NCBI GenBank assembly: GCA_903945195.1
Contig: CAJAUT010000006.1
Span: 493 to 64,492, forward strand
Length of the DNA: 64,000 bases
Direction: 5' to 3'
Origin: an uncultured bacterium
Lineage (GTDB): Bacteria; Patescibacteriota; Microgenomatia; UBA1400; UBA12108
The notes beneath the pieces are model-generated. The model ran no database searches. It had not been told where the DNA came from and saw only the letters and a list, made by a program, of their open reading frames with translations. A program made the translations under genes and the position numbers. This document shows positions 1 to 24,073 of the stretch, piece after piece (within the stretch, counting starts at the first letter, position 1; the number at the start of each line of letters is the position of its first letter).

Positions 1-11
1 TCGAGGAGATA

Positions 12-1631
12 GTGGAGAAACAATCCGCTAAAGCTCCTGGCCGTCCACTCTTTAATCAAATGATCGGTAGGCTAGAAAAAGGTGAGGCGAACGGAATAGT
101 CAGTTGGAATCCCGATAGGTTGGCTAGAAATAGTGTGGATGGCGGCAAAATTATCTATCTCCTCGATACCGGGCGTATTGTGGCGTTGAAGTTCCCAACA
201 TTTTGGTTTGAACCAACGCCACAAGGAAAGTTCATGCTCAATATCGCCTTTGGACAAAGCAAATACTATGTGGATTCGCTTGCCGAAAATACCAAAAGAG
301 GACTCCGCCAGAAAGTGAGGCGGGGAGAATTCCCTGGTTGTGCTCCAATCGGCTATATCAACGATGTGAGAAACAAGAGTATTGCTGTAGACCGCAAGCG
401 GAGTGTAATCATCCGTAAGGCTTTCGAGTTGTACGCCCAAGGCAATAGCCGATTGGAGGATATCAGCACTTTTCTGGCGGAGAATGGATTAAACGCACGA
501 GGAGGCAAGCGACTCCACAAAGACAGAATCAATTTTATCCTCCACAACCCGTTCTACTACGGACACTTTAGGTATTTGGGTGAAACATACGAAGGTCATC
601 ACCAGCCAGTCATCACCAAGCAGTTGTTTGATCAGGTGCAGGTGGTACTCTCGGAGCGTGGTCGTCCATACCAAACCCCCACCTATGCCTCCCAAGCCCT
701 CTGTGGACTCCTGCGGTGTGGCACCTGCCAGATGATGATCACTGGCGAGGCCAAAACCAAACACCAAAAGAATGGTAACGAGCACCACTACGTCTACTAT
801 CACTGCACCAGGAAACATAAAACCATCAGGTGCAGTGAGCCACCCGTAGCCGAGGGTGAGTTAGCTCGCCAGTTATCATCCCTGATCAAACAACCTGCTT
901 TATCACCGAGTTGGGCGGAATCTATGCGAAACAAGTTAGCAGAAGATAAGATAGACTCCGCCCAATCGGTTACTGCGTTTGTGTCAGAGACAACCAATAC
1001 TATTCGTGCCATTGATCATAAGCTACAGCGACTGCTCGACGGCTATCTCGACCAACTGATTGACCAGGATATCTACAAAACACAGAAGAATAAGTTGGTC
1101 AGTTCTAAGAAGTCGCTAACTGATCAATTGGCACGCATGACACAAACGCAGACTCGCTGGGTAGAACCGATGCTCAAATGGATAAATCAGGCAGAGAATC
1201 TGCCTGCAGTCGCCGAGTGTGGCACTCTTACACAGGTCAAGAGTGCAGCCAAAGAAATCTTTGGCTCGGACCTATGGCTTTCCGCGAGCGAAGCGAGCGG
1301 GACAGCACAATCCCCCTGGGATTCTGTGATCTCTGCGACCAGTCGGTGCAAAAAAGCTGAAAATTTGCAAAACAGTTGTGCTTGGGTGGGCCCACTGGGA
1401 TTCGGACCCAGGACACCCTACTTAAGAGGCAGGTGCTCTAACCAGCTGAGCTATAGGCCCACTATTAACTTATATACCCCTGATGCATCTTTATTTGAAC
1501 ACTTTCTGCCTTGGATTCAGAAAATAATGTTCGCATTAATGAATCTGAACCAGACTATCAATATCAGGGTTTACAAAAAAGTATTATACGAGAAAAGTTG
1601 GCTAATTAAAATAGCGGTAGTCGTAGACTAA
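12..1631 (+). CDS. Large serine recombinase (5'-truncated at window edge). The ORF reads across the antisense tRNA-Lys, so the true C-terminus is uncertain.
   Basis: Resolvase catalytic-domain tail (GIVSWNPDRLARNSVDG), recombinase domain and a Cys-rich zinc ribbon (CGLLRCGTCQ...YHCTRK). No upstream start within the window. Confidence 0.8.
   Translation: MEKQSAKAPGRPLFNQMIGRLEKGEANGIVSWNPDRLARNSVDGGKIIYLLDTGRIVALKFPTFWFEPTPQGKFMLNIAFGQSKYYVDSLAENTKRGLRQKVRRGEFPGCAPIGYINDVRNKSIAVDRKRSVIIRKAFELYAQGNSRLEDISTFLAENGLNARGGKRLHKDRINFILHNPFYYGHFRYLGETYEGHHQPVITKQLFDQVQVVLSERGRPYQTPTYASQALCGLLRCGTCQMMITGEAKTKHQKNGNEHHYVYYHCTRKHKTIRCSEPPVAEGELARQLSSLIKQPALSPSWAESMRNKLAEDKIDSAQSVTAFVSETTNTIRAIDHKLQRLLDGYLDQLIDQDIYKTQKNKLVSSKKSLTDQLARMTQTQTRWVEPMLKWINQAENLPAVAECGTLTQVKSAAKEIFGSDLWLSASEASGTAQSPWDSVISATSRCKKAENLQNSCAWVGPLGFGPRTPYLRGRCSNQLSYRPTINLYTPDASLFEHFLPWIQKIMFALMNLNQTINIRVYKKVLYEKSWLIKIAVVVD
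1385..1460 (-). tRNA. tRNA-Lys (anticodon CTT)
   Basis: Reverse complement GGGCCTATAGCTCAGCTGGTTAGAGCACCTGCCTCTTAAGTAGGGTGTCCTGGGTCCGAATCCCAGTGGGCCCA folds as a cloverleaf. Acceptor 7 bp, D arm GCTC/GAGC, anticodon stem CCTGC/GTAGG, loop CTCTTAA, T arm CTGGG-TCCGAAT-CCCAG. Confidence 0.75.
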
Positions 1632-2756: not shown

Positions 2757-2920
2757 TAAATCTCAAATCCCACCTCGGGCGCGCGATGTTTTATCGCATC
2801 TAGCCAAACTCGACGGGAGAAATACAAATATCGATGTACCTATCCGGACTACTTAAACACCGAGATTAGCCCATTATATCAATCAATTTGTACCTTCGAT
2901 AATTGTGCTATGTCTTCTAG

Positions 2921-3000
2921 TGCCGAGGAGAGGACTTGAACCTCCATGAATTACTTCACACGCACCTCAAGCGTGCGCGTCTACCATTTCGCCACCTCGG
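2921..3000 (-). tRNA. tRNA-Leu (anticodon GAG), long variable arm
   Basis: Reverse complement GCCGAGGTGGCGAAATGGTAGACGCGCACGCTTGAGGTGCGTGTGAAGTAATTCATGGAGGTTCAAGTCCTCTCCTCGGCA. Anticodon stem CACGC/GCGTG, loop TTGAGGT. T arm GGAGG-TTCAAGT-CCTCT. Confidence 0.8.
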
Positions 3001-3336
3001 CAATTTGCAAAGATTAGTATTTCTACCAACTTTAGCAGTATTAACTTGTTTGTGTACCATTTCGCCCGCCTGCAACAGTTGTGCTGTAAGCACTGCGGGC
3101 AGGCCACCTCGGCAATTTGCAAAGATTAGTATTTCTACCAACTTTAGCAGTATTAACTTGTTTGTGTACCATTTCGCCCGCCTGCAACAGTTGTGCTGTA
3201 AGCACTGCGGGCAGGCCACCTCGGCAATCAATAAAAGTCAGGTATTGCTACCAACTTTATCTTATTAACTTGTTTGTCTACCATTTCGCCCGCCTGCAAC
3301 AGCTGTGCTGTAAGCACTGCGGGCAGGCCACCTCGG
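2991..3336. repeat. Tandem array of three 112-bp units (2991-3102, 3103-3214, 3215-3326) plus a 10-bp terminal partial (3327-3336). Each unit is the tRNA-Leu 5' end (nt 1-10), a 38-bp imperfect-palindrome hairpin, tRNA nt ~11-23, then ~50 bp of spacer.
   Basis: Units 1 and 2 are identical. Unit 3 has a diverged spacer but a conserved hairpin and tRNA pieces. Period measured from recurring CCACCTCGGC at 2991, 3103, 3215 and 3327. Confidence 0.9.
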
Positions 3337-3387
3337 CTTATTTAACGTGCAGGAGCAATTATACTACACCAAGTATGATTCTTAACT

Positions 3388-3822: not shown

Positions 3823-4482
3823 TTACATCATTTTCACCCATAAATCACTGAATTCTCCGTCGCATCTGTATTTTTTATCATTTTTCACAAATCCATTGTA
3901 AGAGAGCACTTTTGCAGAACCAATATTATCTGGTGAGATAAAACCATATATCACAAGTTTAGGACGTATTTTGTACAGTTTTTCAAAACCAGCTTTTAAC
4001 TTCTTTAGAGCCAACTTTAGACCTTCCACTATCACACCTTTACGATTCAGGTGGAGATGCAATTTCGTCGTATAACTCAGCTTTTCTAATATTTCATCTG
4101 GCCAACCACCACTCATCAGTTTTTGATAGCTAACCTGAAATATACGAGAGTTCCTAGAAGTCAGACCATATGCGTCCATGACTTTACTAGGGAGTGGATA
4201 TTTTGAGTCTTGATAAAACCAAATCCACCCAACTAGCGCATCTTTTACGTCTACAACCCCGTACATCAATTCATAAGATTTTTTTGTCACTTTATAATCT
4301 ATCTTTGCCAAAGTCTTATCAACATCGTGCAAATCAGTAATTTTGGCAAAATCAAAATCATCTGTAAAATATCCTTTAGCTTTCATCACCTCTGGGTGAT
4401 AATACATCAAATTCATCCGTTCAACGTCTCCAGGATTTTGGGGGTCAAAACTGCGTAAGCGATATGGTACGGAAGTAATCAT
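3823..4482 (-). CDS. GNAT-family acetyltransferase-like protein
   Basis: C-terminal NIGSAKVLSYNGF resembles the GNAT motif. Convergent with the SET gene. Confidence 0.4.
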   Translation of the reverse strand: MITSVPYRLRSFDPQNPGDVERMNLMYYHPEVMKAKGYFTDDFDFAKITDLHDVDKTLAKIDYKVTKKSYELMYGVVDVKDALVGWIWFYQDSKYPLPSKVMDAYGLTSRNSRIFQVSYQKLMSGGWPDEILEKLSYTTKLHLHLNRKGVIVEGLKLALKKLKAGFEKLYKIRPKLVIYGFISPDNIGSAKVLSYNGFVKNDKKYRCDGEFSDLWVKMM

Positions 4483-6744: not shown

Positions 6745-7761
6745 ATGGTTTTATCAGACGATCTCCTTGCCTTACCCAAAAAAGTTGCCATTTTATACTC
6801 AGACGTCAAGCGCGAGTATTTTTCAAACGAAGAAACCTATCTGACAGAAATGGGTGCAGATATCTACGCCGGAGACGTAGCCAAATATGTGGAAAAGATG
6901 GGGATTGTAGTCACGACTATACCCGGCGATGATCACATGGCCGAGAATCTAGTGAAATTCAATCCCGACATGGCCATCAATTTGATCGACTCTGTTAGAG
7001 GTCAAAGTACCCTTGGTTCATCTGTCCCTGGAGTCCTTGAGATCCTCCATATCCCCTATACAGGAGCAGGGACCCTAGGATGGGCGCTTGGGACCAACAA
7101 ATTCCTCATGTATCAGCTCCTACAAACTTCAGGAGTTCCAGTTCCTACGCACCAGATAGTCTCTAGCTCCACCGACATGATCGATCCTGGTATGCGTTAT
7201 CCACTCTTCCCCAAGCTCAACTACGAACATTCTAGTATCGGCGTAGCTGCAGACAGTATTTGTCACAATGAAAAAGAACTTAGGTCCAAACTTAAAGATC
7301 TGATCACCACCTACAAACAACCAGTGCTAATCGACGAGTTTATCGCGGGTATCGAGGTCACTGCCTCTGTTCTAGACGGTATGAACACCAAAGTGTATAT
7401 GGTCCAGCGCAAAGTAGGTGAGGGGATAGAAGACGTCGTGACGTTCGACAAAAAATGGAAAGATTATCTGGATATGACCTACATCAAATATGAGGATCCG
7501 ATTCTCAAAGGTTACGTTAAACAAGCTTTTGATATTCTCAAGATGTCTGATTATGCCCGCATCGACATCCGCATCGACGCAGCAGGCAGGTATTATTTCA
7601 TCGATCCAAATGCCAATCCATTCTTTGGTCCACCCAAAGAAACCCACGCCACCTACAGCATGATTCTCGATATGTACGGTGTCACTTTTGAAGAAACCTT
7701 AAAACGTTTATTCCTCAACACACTTCAAGATGCGCGTATAGAACAAAACGGCTGGCACTAA
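6745..7761 (+). CDS. Divergent D-Ala-D-Ala-ligase-like ATP-grasp ligase (paralog 2)
   Basis: LEILHIPYTGAGTLG and IDIRIDAAGRYYFIDPNANP. Start overlaps the stop of the upstream paralog. Confidence 0.6.
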   Translation: MVLSDDLLALPKKVAILYSDVKREYFSNEETYLTEMGADIYAGDVAKYVEKMGIVVTTIPGDDHMAENLVKFNPDMAINLIDSVRGQSTLGSSVPGVLEILHIPYTGAGTLGWALGTNKFLMYQLLQTSGVPVPTHQIVSSSTDMIDPGMRYPLFPKLNYEHSSIGVAADSICHNEKELRSKLKDLITTYKQPVLIDEFIAGIEVTASVLDGMNTKVYMVQRKVGEGIEDVVTFDKKWKDYLDMTYIKYEDPILKGYVKQAFDILKMSDYARIDIRIDAAGRYYFIDPNANPFFGPPKETHATYSMILDMYGVTFEETLKRLFLNTLQDARIEQNGWH

Positions 7762-8045
7762 GTCAAATCAAATCTCAGAGTCTTACCCACAGCCACAGCA
7801 ATCTTGGACATAAAATCAAATGACGGGTTAGAAGACCCACCTTCAAATCGTGAGATTACAGCTTGTTTCGTACCAATTTTCTTGGCAAGTTGTGACTGAG
7901 TCATCTTTTTGGCCAAACGCGCATCAATCATCTTGCATATCATGTCAAACTTGGGTTGTGATGCTGCATACATCGCTCTAAGACCTGGTCTACCCGCCAA
8001 AGCTTTCTTTTTAAATTCGTCATAACTATCGATAAATGGTTTCAT
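7758..8045 (-). CDS. XRE-family HTH antitoxin (HigA-like)
   Basis: HTH stretch MTQSQLAKKIGTKQAVISRFE. Immediately downstream of a RelE/HigB-like toxin gene. Confidence 0.55.
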   Translation of the reverse strand: MKPFIDSYDEFKKKALAGRPGLRAMYAASQPKFDMICKMIDARLAKKMTQSQLAKKIGTKQAVISRFEGGSSNPSFDFMSKIAVAVGKTLRFDLT

Positions 8046-8066
8046 AACACATTTATAATCTATAAG

Positions 8067-8399
8067 TTATAATCTGTCAAGCCTTTCCTCTGCAAGTTTC
8101 AACTCTTTGCTGGGTAGTTTATTAGTTTTCTTCTTAAATGAATTAAGCAACACAAATTGCGAGTTATGCCATGTATACAATAATCGAATCGGAACTTTAC
8201 CTGAAGTTCGTAGTTCGTATATGGTGCTACTAATTCTCTTAGCATATGGCAAAGATAACTTCGGACCATATACTTTAAGCAAGTCCATAACTCGCATTAC
8301 TTTATTAAAAGTTGCATCATCCAAAGAATAAATAAATTCTTCAACTGGCTTATCGTCGCGACTATTTGCATAAAAACCCAAAATCCATGACATAACCAA
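8067..8399 (-). CDS. RelE/ParE-superfamily toxin (HigB/Gp49-like)
   Basis: ~110-aa protein upstream of and co-oriented with the HTH antitoxin. Typical toxin-first HigBA arrangement. Confidence 0.5.
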   Translation of the reverse strand: MVMSWILGFYANSRDDKPVEEFIYSLDDATFNKVMRVMDLLKVYGPKLSLPYAKRISSTIYELRTSGKVPIRLLYTWHNSQFVLLNSFKKKTNKLPSKELKLAEERLDRL

Positions 8400-8449: not shown

Positions 8450-8523
8450 TGCGGGATCGTCTAATGGTAGGACTCGGGACTTTGAATCCCGCTATCTAGG
8501 TTCGAACCCTAGTCCCGCAACCA
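8450..8523 (+). tRNA. tRNA-Gln (anticodon TTG)
   Basis: TGCGGGA-TC-GTC-TAATGGTAG-GAC-T-CGGGA-CTTTGAA-TCCCG-CTAT-CTAGG-TTCGAAC-CCTAG-TCCCGCA-A-CCA. Anticodon TTG. Confidence 0.8.
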
Positions 8524-10098
8524 CATAGGATTAGTAGGAATAAGATCAGGTCTTTTGCTCAATATATCAGCATATTTAGTAAGTTCGAACGTTTTCTTTT
8601 CTTTTATTGACCAATCTGAGACTTTTGAAAAAACATAATACGAATTTTTCAGCTGTATAGATACTATTTTATCTTTTAGTAAAAAGTTCGAACCCAAGTC
8701 TCTGACCACTCTACCTTTACCCATATCATCAGCTTTCTTAAACTTCTGACTTGCTGTTAATGCAAACTCCATCTCGTCTAGCAATTCTCGGTAACTACGC
8801 CTAACAGGTAGAGCATCTTCTGTACTTTTGAGTATGGTTATTTGATCAGCAATCTTCTTTTTGGCTGGCTTATACTCAGCATCAGTAATTGTCCCATCTA
8901 GCAACTTCTCAAGTAAAAGGGAAGATCTTTTCTCTAGTACAGCAATATCTTTTGATTTATCAAGAACACTGACAGATTCTTGCTTATTTTCTTCAGTCTC
9001 TAAATATGATGACCATTTACTAGCCCAGGATAAGAATTCTTTAGGAATACGAATACTTTTTACAACCTCCTCTAATTGTTCGTTAATCACCGACTTTGAT
9101 ATAGGAGGTTGTACACATGATTGTTGTTGTGACTTATGAGAACAGCGGTAGTAATCGTACGGAACGGTAGTATTAGAGCTTTTGTTAAATTTAAATTTGC
9201 GTGACCCTGAAACCATGCAAGAACAGTCTGCACAAAAGAATAACCCTCTGTAAGGAAAATCATGCTTGCTTCTGAGTGATTTGTGATTAGGATTAATTTT
9301 GGTTTGCACTAAATCAAAAACTTCCTTTGTGACCATTGGTTTGTGCTTGCCATGATACCAATTACCAGACCTCTTAGGCCACTCGAATTCACCATAAAAG
9401 AAAGGATTAGAGATCATCCTGTAGAACCCTGACCTACAAATCAACTCATCTTTGCCACCAGCATCTTTCCATGCTCTACAACCCTCCTCATAGGCCTCAA
9501 CAGGTCGTTTACCCTGCAAGATGGAGTACCAGCAGGACTTTAGATATGGAAAGCGTTTAGTGTCAGGCACAATAGTGCGATAACCCATAAGTTTTTGAGG
9601 CGTATTTTTGTATCCCTCAGGTACTGGAGCAGGTAGCCATCCCATTTTGGCTTTAGCAGTCATCCCACGTTTCACATCAACACTTTTGTTATCATTCTCG
9701 AGTTTAGCCTGACCCCACTCAAAACCTAGAAAGAATCTATCAGTTGGAGAAGCCACATAAGAACGACTAGGAGTAACAATGGTTTGCAGTAACCCCTGAT
9801 CCATTAGGTAGATCATTGCACCTGAATCAACGGAGTTACGAGATAAACGGTTAGGATGCCAGACCAAGATACCGTTAATCTTCTTCTGACCAATCAGGCT
9901 AATCATCTCGTTAAAAGCAGGTCTACCTGGTTTTTTGGCAGATTTAGATTCCTTAAATGTTGCCACAAGGGTAATTCCTAGCTTACTTGCGAGTTTCTTA
10001 ATCTCATCTTCTTGAGCAGGAAGCGATAAGGCTTGGCGATCATCGCTTTCTGAGGATTTACGAAAATAAGCACAGTATTTAATTTCCATGGCTTGCAT
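8509..10098 (-). CDS. Large serine recombinase (integrase)
   Basis: N-terminal resolvase domain (YFRKSSESDDRQALSLPAQ...ILVWHPNRLSRN), recombinase domain and Cys-rich zinc-ribbon region. 3' end overlaps tRNA-Gln. Confidence 0.85.
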   Translation of the reverse strand: MQAMEIKYCAYFRKSSESDDRQALSLPAQEDEIKKLASKLGITLVATFKESKSAKKPGRPAFNEMISLIGQKKINGILVWHPNRLSRNSVDSGAMIYLMDQGLLQTIVTPSRSYVASPTDRFFLGFEWGQAKLENDNKSVDVKRGMTAKAKMGWLPAPVPEGYKNTPQKLMGYRTIVPDTKRFPYLKSCWYSILQGKRPVEAYEEGCRAWKDAGGKDELICRSGFYRMISNPFFYGEFEWPKRSGNWYHGKHKPMVTKEVFDLVQTKINPNHKSLRSKHDFPYRGLFFCADCSCMVSGSRKFKFNKSSNTTVPYDYYRCSHKSQQQSCVQPPISKSVINEQLEEVVKSIRIPKEFLSWASKWSSYLETEENKQESVSVLDKSKDIAVLEKRSSLLLEKLLDGTITDAEYKPAKKKIADQITILKSTEDALPVRRSYRELLDEMEFALTASQKFKKADDMGKGRVVRDLGSNFLLKDKIVSIQLKNSYYVFSKVSDWSIKEKKTFELTKYADILSKRPDLIPTNPMWLRD

Positions 10099-21195: not shown

Positions 21196-21687
21196 ATGAA
21201 TAAAACATTGGTCCTAGTGATCTGTACCTTAATCCTACTTATATCTGGTACAAAAAAAGTTTCAGCAGTTGAACACGATCTACGTGCTGAGCAAATGCGC
21301 GTTGTACTTTCAAAATACAACTCACCCATGGTAGGCCTAGAAGATGTACTTATCAGTACTGCCGAAAAATATGGTCTAGACTGGACTCTCATGGCCGCTA
21401 TTGCTGGCACCGAATCTAGCTTTGCCAAACGCATGCCTTACCAGTGCAACAACCCTTATGGTTGGGGTATCTACGGCAACAACAAGCTATGCTTTAAATC
21501 CCTAGAAGATTCCATAGAAGGCGTGGCTTCTGGCCTAGCCAAGAAGTACAATATTAGCTCTATCGAGTCTATCGCTCACACCTACAACACTGTCTCTACA
21601 GATGGCTGGATTATGCACACCAAGTTTTTCATGAATAAGATCAAAAATGCAGAAGTACCTGTATCTGCTCTCCCAATTGAGTTATAA
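21196..21687 (+). CDS. Secreted GH73-like peptidoglycan hydrolase (paralog of the upstream gene)
   Basis: Signal peptide. AIAGTESSF...NNPYGWGI. Confidence 0.4.
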   Translation: MNKTLVLVICTLILLISGTKKVSAVEHDLRAEQMRVVLSKYNSPMVGLEDVLISTAEKYGLDWTLMAAIAGTESSFAKRMPYQCNNPYGWGIYGNNKLCFKSLEDSIEGVASGLAKKYNISSIESIAHTYNTVSTDGWIMHTKFFMNKIKNAEVPVSALPIEL

Positions 21688-21700
21688 TCTCCACTAAGTA

Positions 21701-21928
21701 GCCGAGGTGGCCCGCCTGCAACGCTTGTGCGTAAGCACTGCGGGCAGGTGAAATGGTATATACACAAGTTAATAAGCAAATCATACTTGAAAGGGTATAA
21801 TCTTTCTTGTATTAGCCGAGGTGGCCCGCCTGCAACGCTTGTGCGTAAGCACTGCGGGCAGGTGAAATGGTATATACACAAGTTAATAAGCAAATCATAC
21901 TTGAAAGGGTATAATCTTTCTTGTATTA
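21701..21928 (+). repeat. Two tandem 114-bp units (21701-21814, 21815-21928). Each is tRNA-Leu nt 1-10 (GCCGAGGTGG), a 38-bp hairpin (CCCGCCTGCAACGCTTGTGCGTAAGCACTGCGGGCAGG), tRNA nt 11-20 (TGAAATGGTA), then spacer carrying GGGTATAAT.
   Basis: Units are identical. Immediately 5' of the intact tRNA-Leu(TAG). Same architecture as the 2991-3336 array but the hairpin is in the opposite orientation relative to the tRNA. Confidence 0.9.
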
Positions 21929-22012
21929 GCCGAGGTGGTGAAATGGTAGACACGCACGCTTTAGGAGCGTGTGCTTTACGGCATGGAGGTTCAAGTCCTC
22001 TCCTCGGCACCA
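21929..22012 (+). tRNA. tRNA-Leu (anticodon TAG), with encoded CCA
   Basis: GCCGAGGTGGTGAAATGGTAGACACGCACGCTTTAGGAGCGTGTGCTTTACGGCATGGAGGTTCAAGTCCTCTCCTCGGCACCA. Anticodon loop TTTAGGA. Confidence 0.8.
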
Positions 22013-22482
22013 TACAGAACTTTTTAAATAGCTTTTCAAATTATCCCGATTTGACGAGCTATTTTCGGGTTCAAGCGGTCCACTTTTATCATTACTCTCT
22101 TTTGCACCCTTCTTTAACTTCAAAAAGATAAATCTAGGCTGATACTCCAGTTTTTGATCTAGTAAGATCGGGTTCAAGCCGATTGCCTTGAAAATGACTT
22201 TTTTGTCCTCTGAGTCACCGTTTTCAAACCTTTGATTTGCCAGTAGCGCAAACTCAAATGAGTCCTTTGCGATATCCGCCCAATCAGATCCATTCTTGTT
22301 AGCGTGCGTTAACTGTTGAGTAATATTATCTTTCTCTATCATCAGCTCCCGCTTTCTATCCGCAAACTCAGTATCAGACAGTAAACTCCCATCATTCTCT
22401 GGAGAAATCTTGAGTGCTATCAGATTATCAATCCTGCGGTTTACCCCGTCTAAAGCGGTCTGGAGAGCCTCTGATTGGATAA
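22013..22482 (-). pseudogene. Remnant (C-terminal ~150 aa only) of a large serine recombinase. Its 3' end abuts and reads into tRNA-Leu(TAG).
   Basis: Translation ...SDTEFADRKRELMIEKDN...SFEFALLANQRFENGDSEDKKVIFKAIG parallels the C-terminal tail of the 8509-10098 recombinase (...EMEFALTASQKFKKADDMGKGRVVRDLG). An in-frame stop sits upstream at ~22483 and there is no catalytic domain. Confidence 0.45.
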
Positions 22483-22508: not shown

Positions 22509-23288
22509 CTATTCTTGATCAGAAGAAATAATCTCAGTCAACGGTAAATTCTCAATCATTTTTTTAATTTGAGTATCGTCTACTTGCCGAGAATAAAAAA
22601 TTTGACGCATTTCTTGCTCTTTTTGCGTACCGATAATTGACCAATTATTAAGGATGTTGGCTTTATTGATCGTGTGTCTGATTTCTTTTTGTTTAATATA
22701 CTTTATGATTTCAGCCAAATCAATTTTGTAAGAATTAAGGATGAGATAGAGGTCATAAAAATCCCTGTATCTGGCCCGATCATTTGTGGCTCGAATCTTC
22801 TCAGCACATATTTCTTTAATATCCATCACGTTTACTTCAAAATCTAAACCCCAAACATTAGTGTATTTCATCTTTTGAGGTGGAAGTAAAACATTTTGCA
22901 AGAAATCTATTTCAACCTTGAGTGAATTAGGCTGTAGGAGCGGGCCAGTATATTGGAGTTTTTCTAATTTAATGGTTGCGTTTGATAAAAAATCCTTCTT
23001 GATTGCCAAGAAATCAATCCCGGTAAACATTCCCCGTACAACCTCGAGAGTTAGATTGGTTTTGTTTGACGAAAAATCCAAATCTTCGGAAAAACGATAT
23101 TGGCTGAGATAACAATGATGTAGTGCCGTACCACCCTTAAAGATTAAGGTTTTCCCCAAAGTAGATTTTGAGATAATCTGCATTACAATTGCTAAAAAGT
23201 AGTCCTTTTCAGCGATATGAAGAGGATAATGTAGTGTCTTCCTACTGATTATTTCCAATTGTTTGCGCGTAATCAGAGGTGAGGTCAT
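22509..23288 (-). CDS. AbiEii/AbiGii-family nucleotidyltransferase toxin (type IV TA / abortive infection)
   Basis: FKGGTAL...RFSEDLDF motif characteristic of the DUF1814/AbiEii nucleotidyltransferases. Confidence 0.6.
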   Translation of the reverse strand: MTSPLITRKQLEIISRKTLHYPLHIAEKDYFLAIVMQIISKSTLGKTLIFKGGTALHHCYLSQYRFSEDLDFSSNKTNLTLEVVRGMFTGIDFLAIKKDFLSNATIKLEKLQYTGPLLQPNSLKVEIDFLQNVLLPPQKMKYTNVWGLDFEVNVMDIKEICAEKIRATNDRARYRDFYDLYLILNSYKIDLAEIIKYIKQKEIRHTINKANILNNWSIIGTQKEQEMRQIFYSRQVDDTQIKKMIENLPLTEIISSDQE

Positions 23289-24073
23289 TTTGATTGGTAT
23301 TTTTCAAAATAAGGATTGTAGTATAGGCGCCATTTTGCATTAAACTTCGTGTCCCCTGGAATCATCCAATGAGTTCCACTTTTACTCTTCACAGTCTCAT
23401 ATAGCGTTTTCGAGTCAAACCCAATTAGATCAAACAATAATCCAAAAATTTTAATTGTGGTTAGTGAAAACCTAGCAATATATTCATTAAGTAGATCGAT
23501 ATTTAAATCTTTTTTGTGTTCTAGTAGTTTTTCGATAACCAAGTCAATTGAATATTGGCTCTTATGAAAATTTACTATATCTATTAAAGCCTTTTCCGGA
23601 GTAGCGATACGGGTAAGGTGACCATCTATACTTATTTCTTTCCAACCAAAGTAATAATCGGCTTTTGTTTTGATAAAGGAATATTCAACGGAGTGCAAAA
23701 CAACTGACTTATATTTTTTTAACGAAACAGAAACTGTTTTGTCTGTTAGCTGGTCAAACATACCGTACTGCTGTAAGGCAGACTCAAATGAAACATAGGA
23801 CTCAGAAACCAATAAATTGGCTACTGTTGAGGGGGTTAATGATAGTGACCCTCTGGTACTTAAGTCAGAAATGGCATAGAGACTACGTTTAATTCTAATA
23901 AGCCAGCCATTTTTGACTAGTTTGGTAATCAAGTTTTTAGCCTGCTTGTAATCCCAGTTCACCTTAGCTTCATCGTAAATTTGGTCAAATGTAACAATCT
24001 GGCTATGTTTTACGATCAAATTCTCGAGTAACTCGCTCTGCTTGGCTGAAAGAATAGTTTGTTTTGTAGTCAT
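23285..24073 (-). CDS. AbiEi-family antitoxin/transcriptional regulator
   Basis: Upstream partner with a 4-bp overlap. Winged-helix-like N-terminus. Size typical of AbiEi. Confidence 0.5.
   Translation of the reverse strand: MTTKQTILSAKQSELLENLIVKHSQIVTFDQIYDEAKVNWDYKQAKNLITKLVKNGWLIRIKRSLYAISDLSTRGSLSLTPSTVANLLVSESYVSFESALQQYGMFDQLTDKTVSVSLKKYKSVVLHSVEYSFIKTKADYYFGWKEISIDGHLTRIATPEKALIDIVNFHKSQYSIDLVIEKLLEHKKDLNIDLLNEYIARFSLTTIKIFGLLFDLIGFDSKTLYETVKSKSGTHWMIPGDTKFNAKWRLYYNPYFEKYQSK

Follow-up and report, generated by a model that had tools for sequence, protein, structure and literature searches.

A seamlessly inserted GC-rich palindrome in displaced tRNA-Leu 5′ fragments and its possible association with a GIY-YIG nuclease cassette

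Rickettsia palindromic elements (RPEs) are repeats of 100–150 bp which are known only from Rickettsia. The mobile GC clusters of yeast mitochondrial DNA, which Weiller et al. are said to have described in 1989, are reportedly GC-rich palindromes of 30–40 bp that occur singly or in tandem in AT-rich DNA. Repetitive extragenic palindromes (REPs) are defined by a GTAG/CGTC terminal tag (PMC3733652). The subject of this study is another GC-rich palindrome, called H, which splits 5′ fragments of tRNA-Leu genes at two loci of a 64,000-nucleotide stretch of DNA from an uncultured bacterium of the Patescibacteriota (contig CAJAUT010000006.1 of assembly GCA_903945195.1; this whole stretch is called the window). 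The split fragments are compared here with those of related loci, some of which contain a gene for a predicted GIY-YIG nuclease.

SegB is a GIY-YIG endonuclease which is encoded among tRNA genes and cuts inside them, leaving mostly 2-nt 3′ overhangs; it drives a recombination-dependent tandem amplification of segments, including truncated copies of the nuclease gene (PMC2330249; PMC13096335). The promoter–stem-loop modules of T4-type phages (PeSL) flank small open reading frames (ORFs), and recombination between modules inserts, deletes or duplicates cassettes (PMC2839356, PMC4122927). Bacteria also have a group of minimal GIY-YIG proteins of the Slx1/YhbQ type (PMC1564403).

The tRNA genes of the window were called with ARAGORN and Rfam, the tandem arrays were delimited with Tandem Repeats Finder (TRF), and the content of the units was read directly. 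Three 112-bp units are located upstream of an intact tRNA-Leu(GAG) gene (2920–3001, minus strand; Rfam tRNA score of 54.7 bits), and two 114-bp units upstream of an intact tRNA-Leu(TAG) gene (21929–22012, plus strand). The two genes point apart, with 18.6 kb between their facing upstream regions. TRF finds 3.1 copies at 2991–3337 (94% matches) and 2.1 copies at 21699–21938 (100% matches). On the tRNA strand, each unit consists of GCCGAGGTGG (tRNA nt 1–10), the palindrome H, (C/T)GAAATGGTA (tRNA nt 11–20) and an AT-rich leader of 53–56 nt which stops right before the next GCCGAGGTGG; the final unit continues into the intact tRNA. The nucleotide at position 11 agrees in each unit with the local tRNA. 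Compared with the intact gene, H adds exactly 38 nt at the TAG locus and 39 nt at the GAG locus, between nt 10 and 11.

The proximal GAG unit (3002–3113, minus strand) comprises the leader (3002–3054), nt 11–20 (3055–3064), the hairpin (3065–3103) and nt 1–10 (3104–3113). The second unit (3114–3225, minus strand, hairpin at 3177–3215) is identical to the first, and the distal one (3226–3337, minus strand, hairpin at 3289–3327) is about 89% identical to both. The first TAG unit (21701–21814, plus strand; nt 1–10 at 21701–21710, hairpin at 21711–21748, nt 11–20 at 21749–21758, leader at 21759–21814) is identical to the second (21815–21928, plus strand, hairpin at 21825–21862). An earlier, sequence-only reading of the window had reported arrays of 5′ tRNA-Leu fragments split by a hairpin between nt 10 and 11 at two loci, and this description is confirmed by ARAGORN, Rfam, TRF and direct reading. 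It had given the hairpin as 38 bp at both loci, which is correct for the TAG locus, the GAG copies having 39 nt and a different variant of the centre; it had also extended the second part of the fragment to nt 23, which is the case in the distal GAG unit, while the other units stop at nt 20.

The first TAG unit is preceded by the ancestral promoter/leader of tRNA-Leu(TAG), GTTATAAT plus 12 nt (21681–21700, plus strand), which is common to relatives without unit. The outermost GAG fragment is preceded by a distal sigma-70-like promoter, TTAAGA-16-TATAAT (3358–3385, minus strand), which sequence comparison shows to be homologous to the leaders within the units of both loci. A simple sigma-70 scan detects a full −35/−10 promoter only at this distal end (3385–3358) and none inside any unit. 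The TATAAT motif previously noticed 13 nt before the tRNA-start sequence of each TAG unit is present at 21796–21801 and 21910–21915. In Rfam 15, tRNAs alone match the window at the gathering score, and the one unit that was searched has no match at E ≤ 10.

The window contains five copies of the hairpin, all within the two arrays, against none expected in shuffled sequences. On the plus strand they all point the same way; since the tRNA genes diverge, the orientation is opposite relative to the two tRNAs, and in this respect the sequence-only reading was right. The centre is ACGC-TTGT-GCGT at the TAG locus and ACAG(C/T)-TGT-GCTGT at the GAG locus. The TAG copy (21711–21748, plus strand, sense to tRNA-Leu(TAG)) has the canonical 38-nt type 1 sequence and is identical to copies at 13 other loci on unrelated contigs. 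The proximal GAG copy (3065–3103) is a 39-nt type 2 variant with an AGTTGT centre, in canonical orientation on the plus strand and antisense to tRNA-Leu(GAG); the distal GAG copy (3289–3327) has the canonical 39-nt type 2 sequence and is identical to copies in rho and topA. These comparisons show two independent insertions of two H subfamilies, one at each locus, and the opposite orientations are explained by this independence. Inversion, which had been suggested as another origin of this pattern, is rejected, either as recombination between the two inverted loci or as a flip within the palindrome: the two hairpins differ in their central stem-loops and not just in orientation, and both variants belong to separate, widespread subfamilies.

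The wide distribution of H appears from scans for exact-match patterns. An 18-mer from the right arm of H occurs at 50 places in 185,579 species genomes, and about 30 of these have the whole palindrome in unrelated flanks; a two-arm pattern gives 23 further places in metagenomes and one viral contig. The metagenome-assembled genomes (MAGs) that carry H are labelled, as deposited, Verrucomicrobiota, Gammaproteobacteria, Pseudomonadales, Saccharibacteria, Woesebacteria, Nomurabacteria and Falkowbacteria, and one Verrucomicrobiota-labelled MAG has H on at least 17 contigs. The GC content of the H-bearing contigs ranges from 0.31 to 0.62, which shows that very different genome types carry H, however reliable the labels are. 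Outside the window, the copies are not adjacent to tRNAs, with the single exception of contig L072 (L followed by a number designates a retrieved locus).

H occurs in forms of 33–42 nt. The 29 variants have in common 10-bp arms (CCCGCCTGCA / TGCGGGCAGG) with two fixed non-Watson–Crick positions, and a constant AAGCAC; H starts with CCCGCC and finishes with GGCAGG. The variants differ in a central mini-hairpin, where the stem changes are compensatory (ACGC/GCGT, GCGC/GCGC, ACAGC/GCTGT, ACGGC/GCCGT, CGC/GCG, TCCC/GGGA). The mean length of this central stem is 3.6, compared to 2.7 in shuffles, and none of the 2000 shuffles reaches such a value. The predicted folding energy is −12 kcal/mol as DNA, and −18.7 and −20.5 kcal/mol as RNA of the two strands.

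Two rho alleles which are 95% identical, one filled and one empty, differ by exactly 39 bp, with no duplication. A third rho lineage has H in an unchanged orientation and frame, but three codons upstream of this site. No target duplication is found at 39 distinct sites, nor any target motif beyond a purine at −1 (34/39) and a pyrimidine at +1 (29/39). The proposal of independent site-specific insertions of a palindrome-associated element therefore holds as regards a separate element and its independent arrivals, but “site-specific” is overstated, considering this loose purine|pyrimidine preference and the copies that are not beside tRNAs. The 39-nt form lies in frame, always encoding PARSAYSTAVAGG, in rho, in the topoisomerase I gene topA, in a transketolase-like gene and in two further ORFs, one of which is doubtful. 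Many copies occupy the exact centre of other palindromes, among them diverged members of the same family and a “GTCATTGCGAG” inverted-repeat family. As judged from these alignments, H inserts seamlessly, without target duplication. It is a low-copy, apparently non-autonomous, miniature GC-rich palindromic insertion element, dispersed in either orientation across very different bacteria, and it is presumably moved by an enzyme acting in trans.

No recurrent protein is encoded beside the copies of H according to an all-against-all BLASTP comparison and a Pfam search of 115 neighbouring ORFs, which would still allow for one hidden transposase. BLAST gives no match to H in cultured phages and plasmids. 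A full-text literature search for the hairpin and the encoded peptides returned nothing relevant, and keyword searches no description. One copy is inside a sequence considered as another possible RNA gene (L075/L013), which has no Rfam match. The orientation of H is not tied to the replication strand: it is independent of GC skew, and single contigs carry H in both orientations. Half-hairpins flanking a larger element were also considered and rejected; the right-arm-only matches are conserved coding matches or chance, in about the expected number.

A 35.7-kb IMG/VR viral contig (L056, GC 0.61) carries 36-nt copies of the hairpin at 270–305 and 4282–4317, inverted and about 4 kb apart. The small ORFs around them have no Pfam match apart from one helix-turn-helix gene, and no enzyme is recognisable among them. 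A second widespread family of nested palindromes, about 150 bp long with GTCATTGCGAG...CTCGCAATGAC as its bounds, is found in L014 (7533–7683), L041, L058, L064, L073, L074 and L077. It occurs on the same contigs as H, and several of its copies hold H at one fixed internal position. In a Nomurabacteria contig (L040, 831–942, minus strand), a tRNA model match with a 49-nt insertion in the region of the anticodon loop lies within the span of a 23S rRNA model; it resembles a tRNA that is embedded or has an intron.

The origin of the split fragments becomes apparent when relatives of the TAG locus are considered. These were reached via the 163-aa gene upstream, one homologue of which is labelled Microgenomates-group bacterium. 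In L081/L082 and L083/L084, no unit separates the same promoter from the intact tRNA-Leu, which it directly precedes; this is the empty ancestral state, the polarity between empty and filled being assigned by parsimony. A single unit, containing the hairpin of the window TAG locus, is present in L005 and in L080; compared with the window, L080 has diverged as little in the hairpin as in the unit. L085/L086 present an independent arrangement, made of tRNA nt 1–12, a different palindrome of 35 nt, nt 13–25, 20 nt and the intact tRNA, and a second copy of this palindrome is precisely inserted 87 nt upstream.

The palindromes of L085/L086 (3504–3543 and 3585–3631) form a third family, CC..TCCGAAGCTC.AAAGAGCGAAGG..GG, in which GAA/GAA mismatches stand in tandem. 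Compared with the window sequence, one copy is inserted precisely and adds 31 bp; the other splits the tRNA-Leu fragment at nt 12/13. A diverged 36-nt member of the H family, with the centre CGTTACGCG, is intergenic in L081 (209–244), where tRNA-Leu has no unit; the family thus exists at low copy number across the clade.

L092/L093 and the empty L081 have identical promoters. In L092/L093, the promoter is followed by GCCGAGGTGG (nt 1–10), a fourth palindrome (CCCGCCTAGACTCGCGTCCACGCGAGGCTGG), TGAAATGGTA (nt 11–20), one T and an intact ORF of 89 codons. In L092 (631–900), this ORF begins 1 nt past the displaced tRNA fragment, and its TAG stop codon is nt 19–21 of the intact tRNA-Leu. The −10 box AAGGTATAAT and nt 1–21 of the intact tRNA make up the last codons, so that the last seven codons are the same DNA as the promoter and the 5′ end of the tRNA. 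The 89-aa product matches Pfam GIY-YIG (5e-13), and its nearest solved relatives are the UPF0213 proteins 1ywl and 1zg2, and SLX1. It is a predicted nuclease, a minimal bacterial GIY-YIG protein of the Slx1/YhbQ type. The identical promoter flanks of the empty L081 and the filled L092 make this a presence/absence polymorphism at one site.

L072, which was retrieved solely for its copy of H, has a comparable layout at another tRNA: a leader, tRNA-Asn nt 1–4, canonical H, nt 5–16, 12 nt and an 81-codon GIY-YIG ORF which is 39% identical to that of L092, then a diverged duplicate of the leader and the intact tRNA-Asn. From the layouts of L092 and L072, the split sequences of the window are recognised as displaced 5′ fragments of tRNA genes, standing before a segment which re-supplies the promoter and the 5′ end of the tRNA; these pseudo-fragments upstream of intact tRNAs are predicted to be non-functional. 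The sequence-only reading missed both the displaced fragments and the GIY-YIG gene present at the equivalent position in a sister lineage and on an unrelated contig, which are visible only with relatives.

In all five displaced fragments (window TAG, window GAG, L085, L092 and L072), a palindrome lies 10–13 nt upstream of the end of the fragment. The position is nt 10/11 or 12/13 in tRNA-Leu and nt 4/5 in tRNA-Asn, and four kinds of palindrome are involved. A GIY-YIG ORF is the next thing downstream in two of the five. The leader of the window TAG locus does not duplicate the ancestral promoter found there, and it shares both of its junctions with the L092 cassette (GGTA|TAT... and ...GGTATAAT..TATTA|GCCGAGG).

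The arrays themselves are polymorphic. Contigs from other samples with the same neighbouring proteins share the array junctions; in these, the GAG locus has one unit (L001) or two, and the TAG locus has one (L005). In the one-unit GAG allele of L001, a unit of the proximal type is fused directly to the distal flank. This junction is absent from the window, which makes L001 a distinct allele and not an assembly collapse of the window's array. Each array consists of identical or nearly identical units, whose number varies between samples, and this supports a multiplication in tandem after the insertion of the palindrome, as the sequence-only reading had put forward.

The explanation that we prefer, at about even confidence, is that the units of the window are amplified relics, devoid of ORF, of a GIY-YIG nuclease cassette which invades tRNA genes, and that H is a separate element inserted in each displaced fragment. 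A small cassette that brought a substitute promoter and 5′ end for the tRNA would have installed itself before the body of the tRNA, and its arrival would have left upstream nt 1–20 of the resident tRNA-Leu gene with a promoter-like leader. The cassettes of the window would then have lost the GIY-YIG ORF, giving units of 112 and 114 bp, and unequal recombination between units would account for the one to three copies of natural populations. The two H subfamilies would have entered the displaced tRNA-Leu fragments independently. The constant position of the hairpin might reflect a nuclease cut site which captures palindromes, or selection for insulating the nuclease gene from the tRNA promoter; regarding the cut site, nt 10/11 and nt 12/13 differ by 2 nt.

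Several observations weigh against a descent of the window units from the cassette, which we infer from the relatives. The window has no GIY-YIG homologue. Between their shared junctions, the window leader and the L092 cassette have little similarity, and a global alignment is unconvincing. The window leaders resemble the distal GAG promoter and could be plain promoter duplicates. The association of GIY-YIG gene, hairpin and tRNA is seen at two loci only, while the other loci with H, about 50, have no GIY-YIG gene nearby. No relative of the GAG locus was recovered via its 325-aa neighbour, the homologues of which are at most 65% identical and not syntenic with tRNA-Leu. Recombination between the two nt 1–10 repeats regenerates the empty state exactly, so that polarity and independence are uncertain at the TAG locus. 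With the purine|pyrimidine preference, a 20-nt fragment offers only about five candidate steps; two hits at nt 10/11 are thus mildly improbable (about 0.2), and this coincidence alone is weak evidence. Lastly, the arms of H were set by the search patterns, so that their constancy is partly ascertainment, the centre being free to vary.

The alternative that survives best, although we think it rather less probable, dispenses with the nuclease cassette. A segment with the promoter and the tRNA 5′ end would have been duplicated by slippage or illegitimate recombination, a REP- or RPE-like palindrome would later have landed in the only permissive spot, and unequal crossing-over would have produced the arrays, the GIY-YIG gene of the relatives being an unrelated, later arrival. 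This agrees with the absence of a nuclease gene from the window, with the likeness of the leaders to the distal GAG promoter and with the distance of most H copies from any GIY-YIG gene; the purine|pyrimidine preference and the little neutral DNA of a compact genome can account for the repeated hits at nt 10/11. It fits poorly with five displaced fragments out of five having one of four different palindromes 10–13 nt from their end, and none lacking one, with a GIY-YIG ORF directly downstream in two of them, and with a TAG leader that differs from the local ancestral promoter.

That the units are functional seems improbable. They could be tandem promoters which increase tRNA-Leu expression, or genes for short RNAs made of the tRNA 5′ part and the hairpin, in which the latter would be a signal for processing, stability or termination. 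The TATAAT of each TAG unit, the strong RNA hairpin predicted on either strand and the fact that tRNA gene amplification driven by SegB is adaptive in phage T6 (PMC13096335) argue for a function. However, no full promoter is detected within the units, no T-tract follows the hairpin, its orientation is not the same at the two loci, close relatives have no unit at all, and the equal low divergence of unit and hairpin between the window and L080 also speaks against it.

A role of serine recombinases is even less probable. The units would in this case be attachment-site scars left by the serial integration and excision of large-serine-recombinase elements at tRNA-Leu genes. The window indeed contains three large serine recombinase genes or fragments, at 3–1166 (plus strand), 8509–10098 (minus strand) and 22013–22474 (minus strand), each at the 3′ end of a tRNA gene (tRNA-Lys at 1383–1461, tRNA-Gln at 8450–8523 and tRNA-Leu(TAG), respectively); the ORF calls of the recombinases run antisense through the tRNA genes. 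The last one, which abuts tRNA-Leu(TAG), is truncated to the C-terminal 182 aa and is 98% identical to the 597-aa recombinase of L081. The sequence-only reading had placed the arrays beside serine-recombinase integration sites; the genes do adjoin the tRNAs, but on their 3′ sides, whereas the arrays are on the 5′ side, and the connection with integration is not borne out. L081 has a complete recombinase element and no unit. In dozens of unrelated contexts, rho and topA among them, the hairpin recurs as one and the same whole palindrome and not as a hybrid of half-sites.

An assembly artefact is hardly credible: tandem repeats of about 112 bp are difficult for short-read assemblers and the copy number varies between assemblies, but the same junctions are found in several independent samples and pipelines, L001 has a junction that is not in the window, and H is also present in long-read MAGs and at conserved positions of diverged genes.

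The truncated recombinase is the start of an island of about 5.7 kb (22013 to about 27700) which includes an AbiEii/AbiEi toxin–antitoxin pair (22509–24073); in relatives without the island, trigger factor directly follows tRNA-Leu(TAG). At 7758–8399, just upstream of tRNA-Gln and its serine-recombinase element, an HTH_3 gene is paired with a Gp49/HigB-like gene.

The preferred explanation, in which a GIY-YIG cassette and H are distinct, can be taken further by supposing that the minimal Slx1-like nuclease and the H-type palindromes make up one undescribed mobile system, an idea which we consider doubtful. The gene of a structure-specific nuclease would invade tRNA genes, supplying a replacement promoter and 5′ end, and the GC-rich palindromes would be substrates or products of the nuclease, captured or installed seamlessly where it cuts. 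Such cuts would fall, among other places, in the D-arm part of the displaced tRNA fragment, at the midpoints of other palindromes and in permissive loops within essential genes. If true, this would explain the constancy of H across phyla, its seamless gain and loss, and the fixed spacing of 10–13 nt between hairpin and cassette. A search for GIY-YIG relatives in viral contigs gave only two matches of 30 residues, which are uninformative.

An H of 38 bp is nearly letter-identical between MAGs of the candidate phyla radiation (CPR) and Verrucomicrobiota-labelled ones, and no prior description was found in literature searches. Gain and loss without a trace in alleles of essential genes that are 95% identical, a compensatory central stem and constancy despite the divergence of the flanking coding sequence call for a dedicated machinery. 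The tRNA-Leu arrays offer a handle on its mechanism: the empty site is defined, several filled states are independent of each other, and the gene of a candidate nuclease lies at the same position. Should the link with the nuclease be true, some bacterial Slx1/YhbQ-like proteins would have a role in selfish elements, and nuclease-driven amplification of tRNA loci would extend from T-even phages to bacterial chromosomes. For annotation, it matters that H insertions add 12–14 residues to conserved proteins and create pseudo-tRNA fragments.

Regarding known classes of repeats, H was considered as a miniature inverted-repeat transposable element and rejected, in view of the lack of target duplication at the 39 sites and of insertions that are exact at 38 bp (tRNA-Leu) and 39 bp (rho). 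A palindrome derived from IS200/IS605 would have a fixed target of 4–5 nt directly at its 5′ side on one strand, and the 5′ flanks of H vary (GGTGG, TTTCG, GCTG, TAAA and others); the “GG” crossover rule of the IS607 type does not fit the 39 flanks. H is not an integron attC site either, since of the RYYYAAC/GTTRRRY core sites it has only one AAC and no GTTRRRY, is shorter than 57–141 nt and has no integrase among its neighbours. The sequence-only reading did not recognise any named repeat class, and this stands in so far as Rfam gives none and no class that was compared agrees in all its features, although H inserts in frame as RPEs do and has the size of REPs.

RPEs are similar in their way of life: like H, they are small and palindromic, have no coding capacity, are inserted in frame in essential protein genes, where the host tolerates them, and also in RNA-gene sequences, and neither has a known mobilising enzyme. 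H is unlike them in its size, its occurrence on CPR, Verrucomicrobiota-labelled and other contigs of very different GC content, and its filled and empty alleles among nearly identical genes. The GC clusters of yeast are organellar, have other sequences and are reported to generate short target duplications. With REPs and REPINs, H shares a GC-rich imperfect palindrome of 20–40 bp, a non-autonomous character, the two orientations, a sequence that is kept across copies and, sometimes, nested or paired inverted copies. However, H has no GTAG/CGTC at either end, it lies within coding genes and in different phyla, the five copies in the 64-kb window suggest a low copy number in its genome, and no RAYT transposase, such as accompanies REPs and REPINs, is seen near it on the contigs that were searched. 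It therefore appears that H resembles RPEs and REPs in manner but departs from their defining features, which are size and lineage for the former and the terminal tag for the latter.

As for the cassette, the units of the window are reminiscent of PeSL, which are repeated short modules of promoter and stem-loop, but PeSL have early promoter and terminator motifs of phages instead of split tRNA fragments, and H is also found alone in genes. A parallel on record is SegB of T4 and T6: in both cases, a GIY-YIG gene is beside tRNA genes and is present or absent among relatives (PMC2330249, PMC13096335). The cassette differs in that its product, a nuclease predicted from sequence, is a minimal Slx1/YhbQ-like domain of 89 aa with no DNA-binding domain, and in that it is located on a bacterial chromosome, overlaps the 5′ end of the tRNA and follows a tRNA fragment split by a hairpin; the window itself has no nuclease gene. 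The GIY-YIG ORF is present in L092/L093 and L072, and the comparison of L081 with L092 reveals the presence/absence polymorphism expected of a homing-endonuclease cassette. By analogy, the cassette may thus work like a free-standing homing-endonuclease gene.

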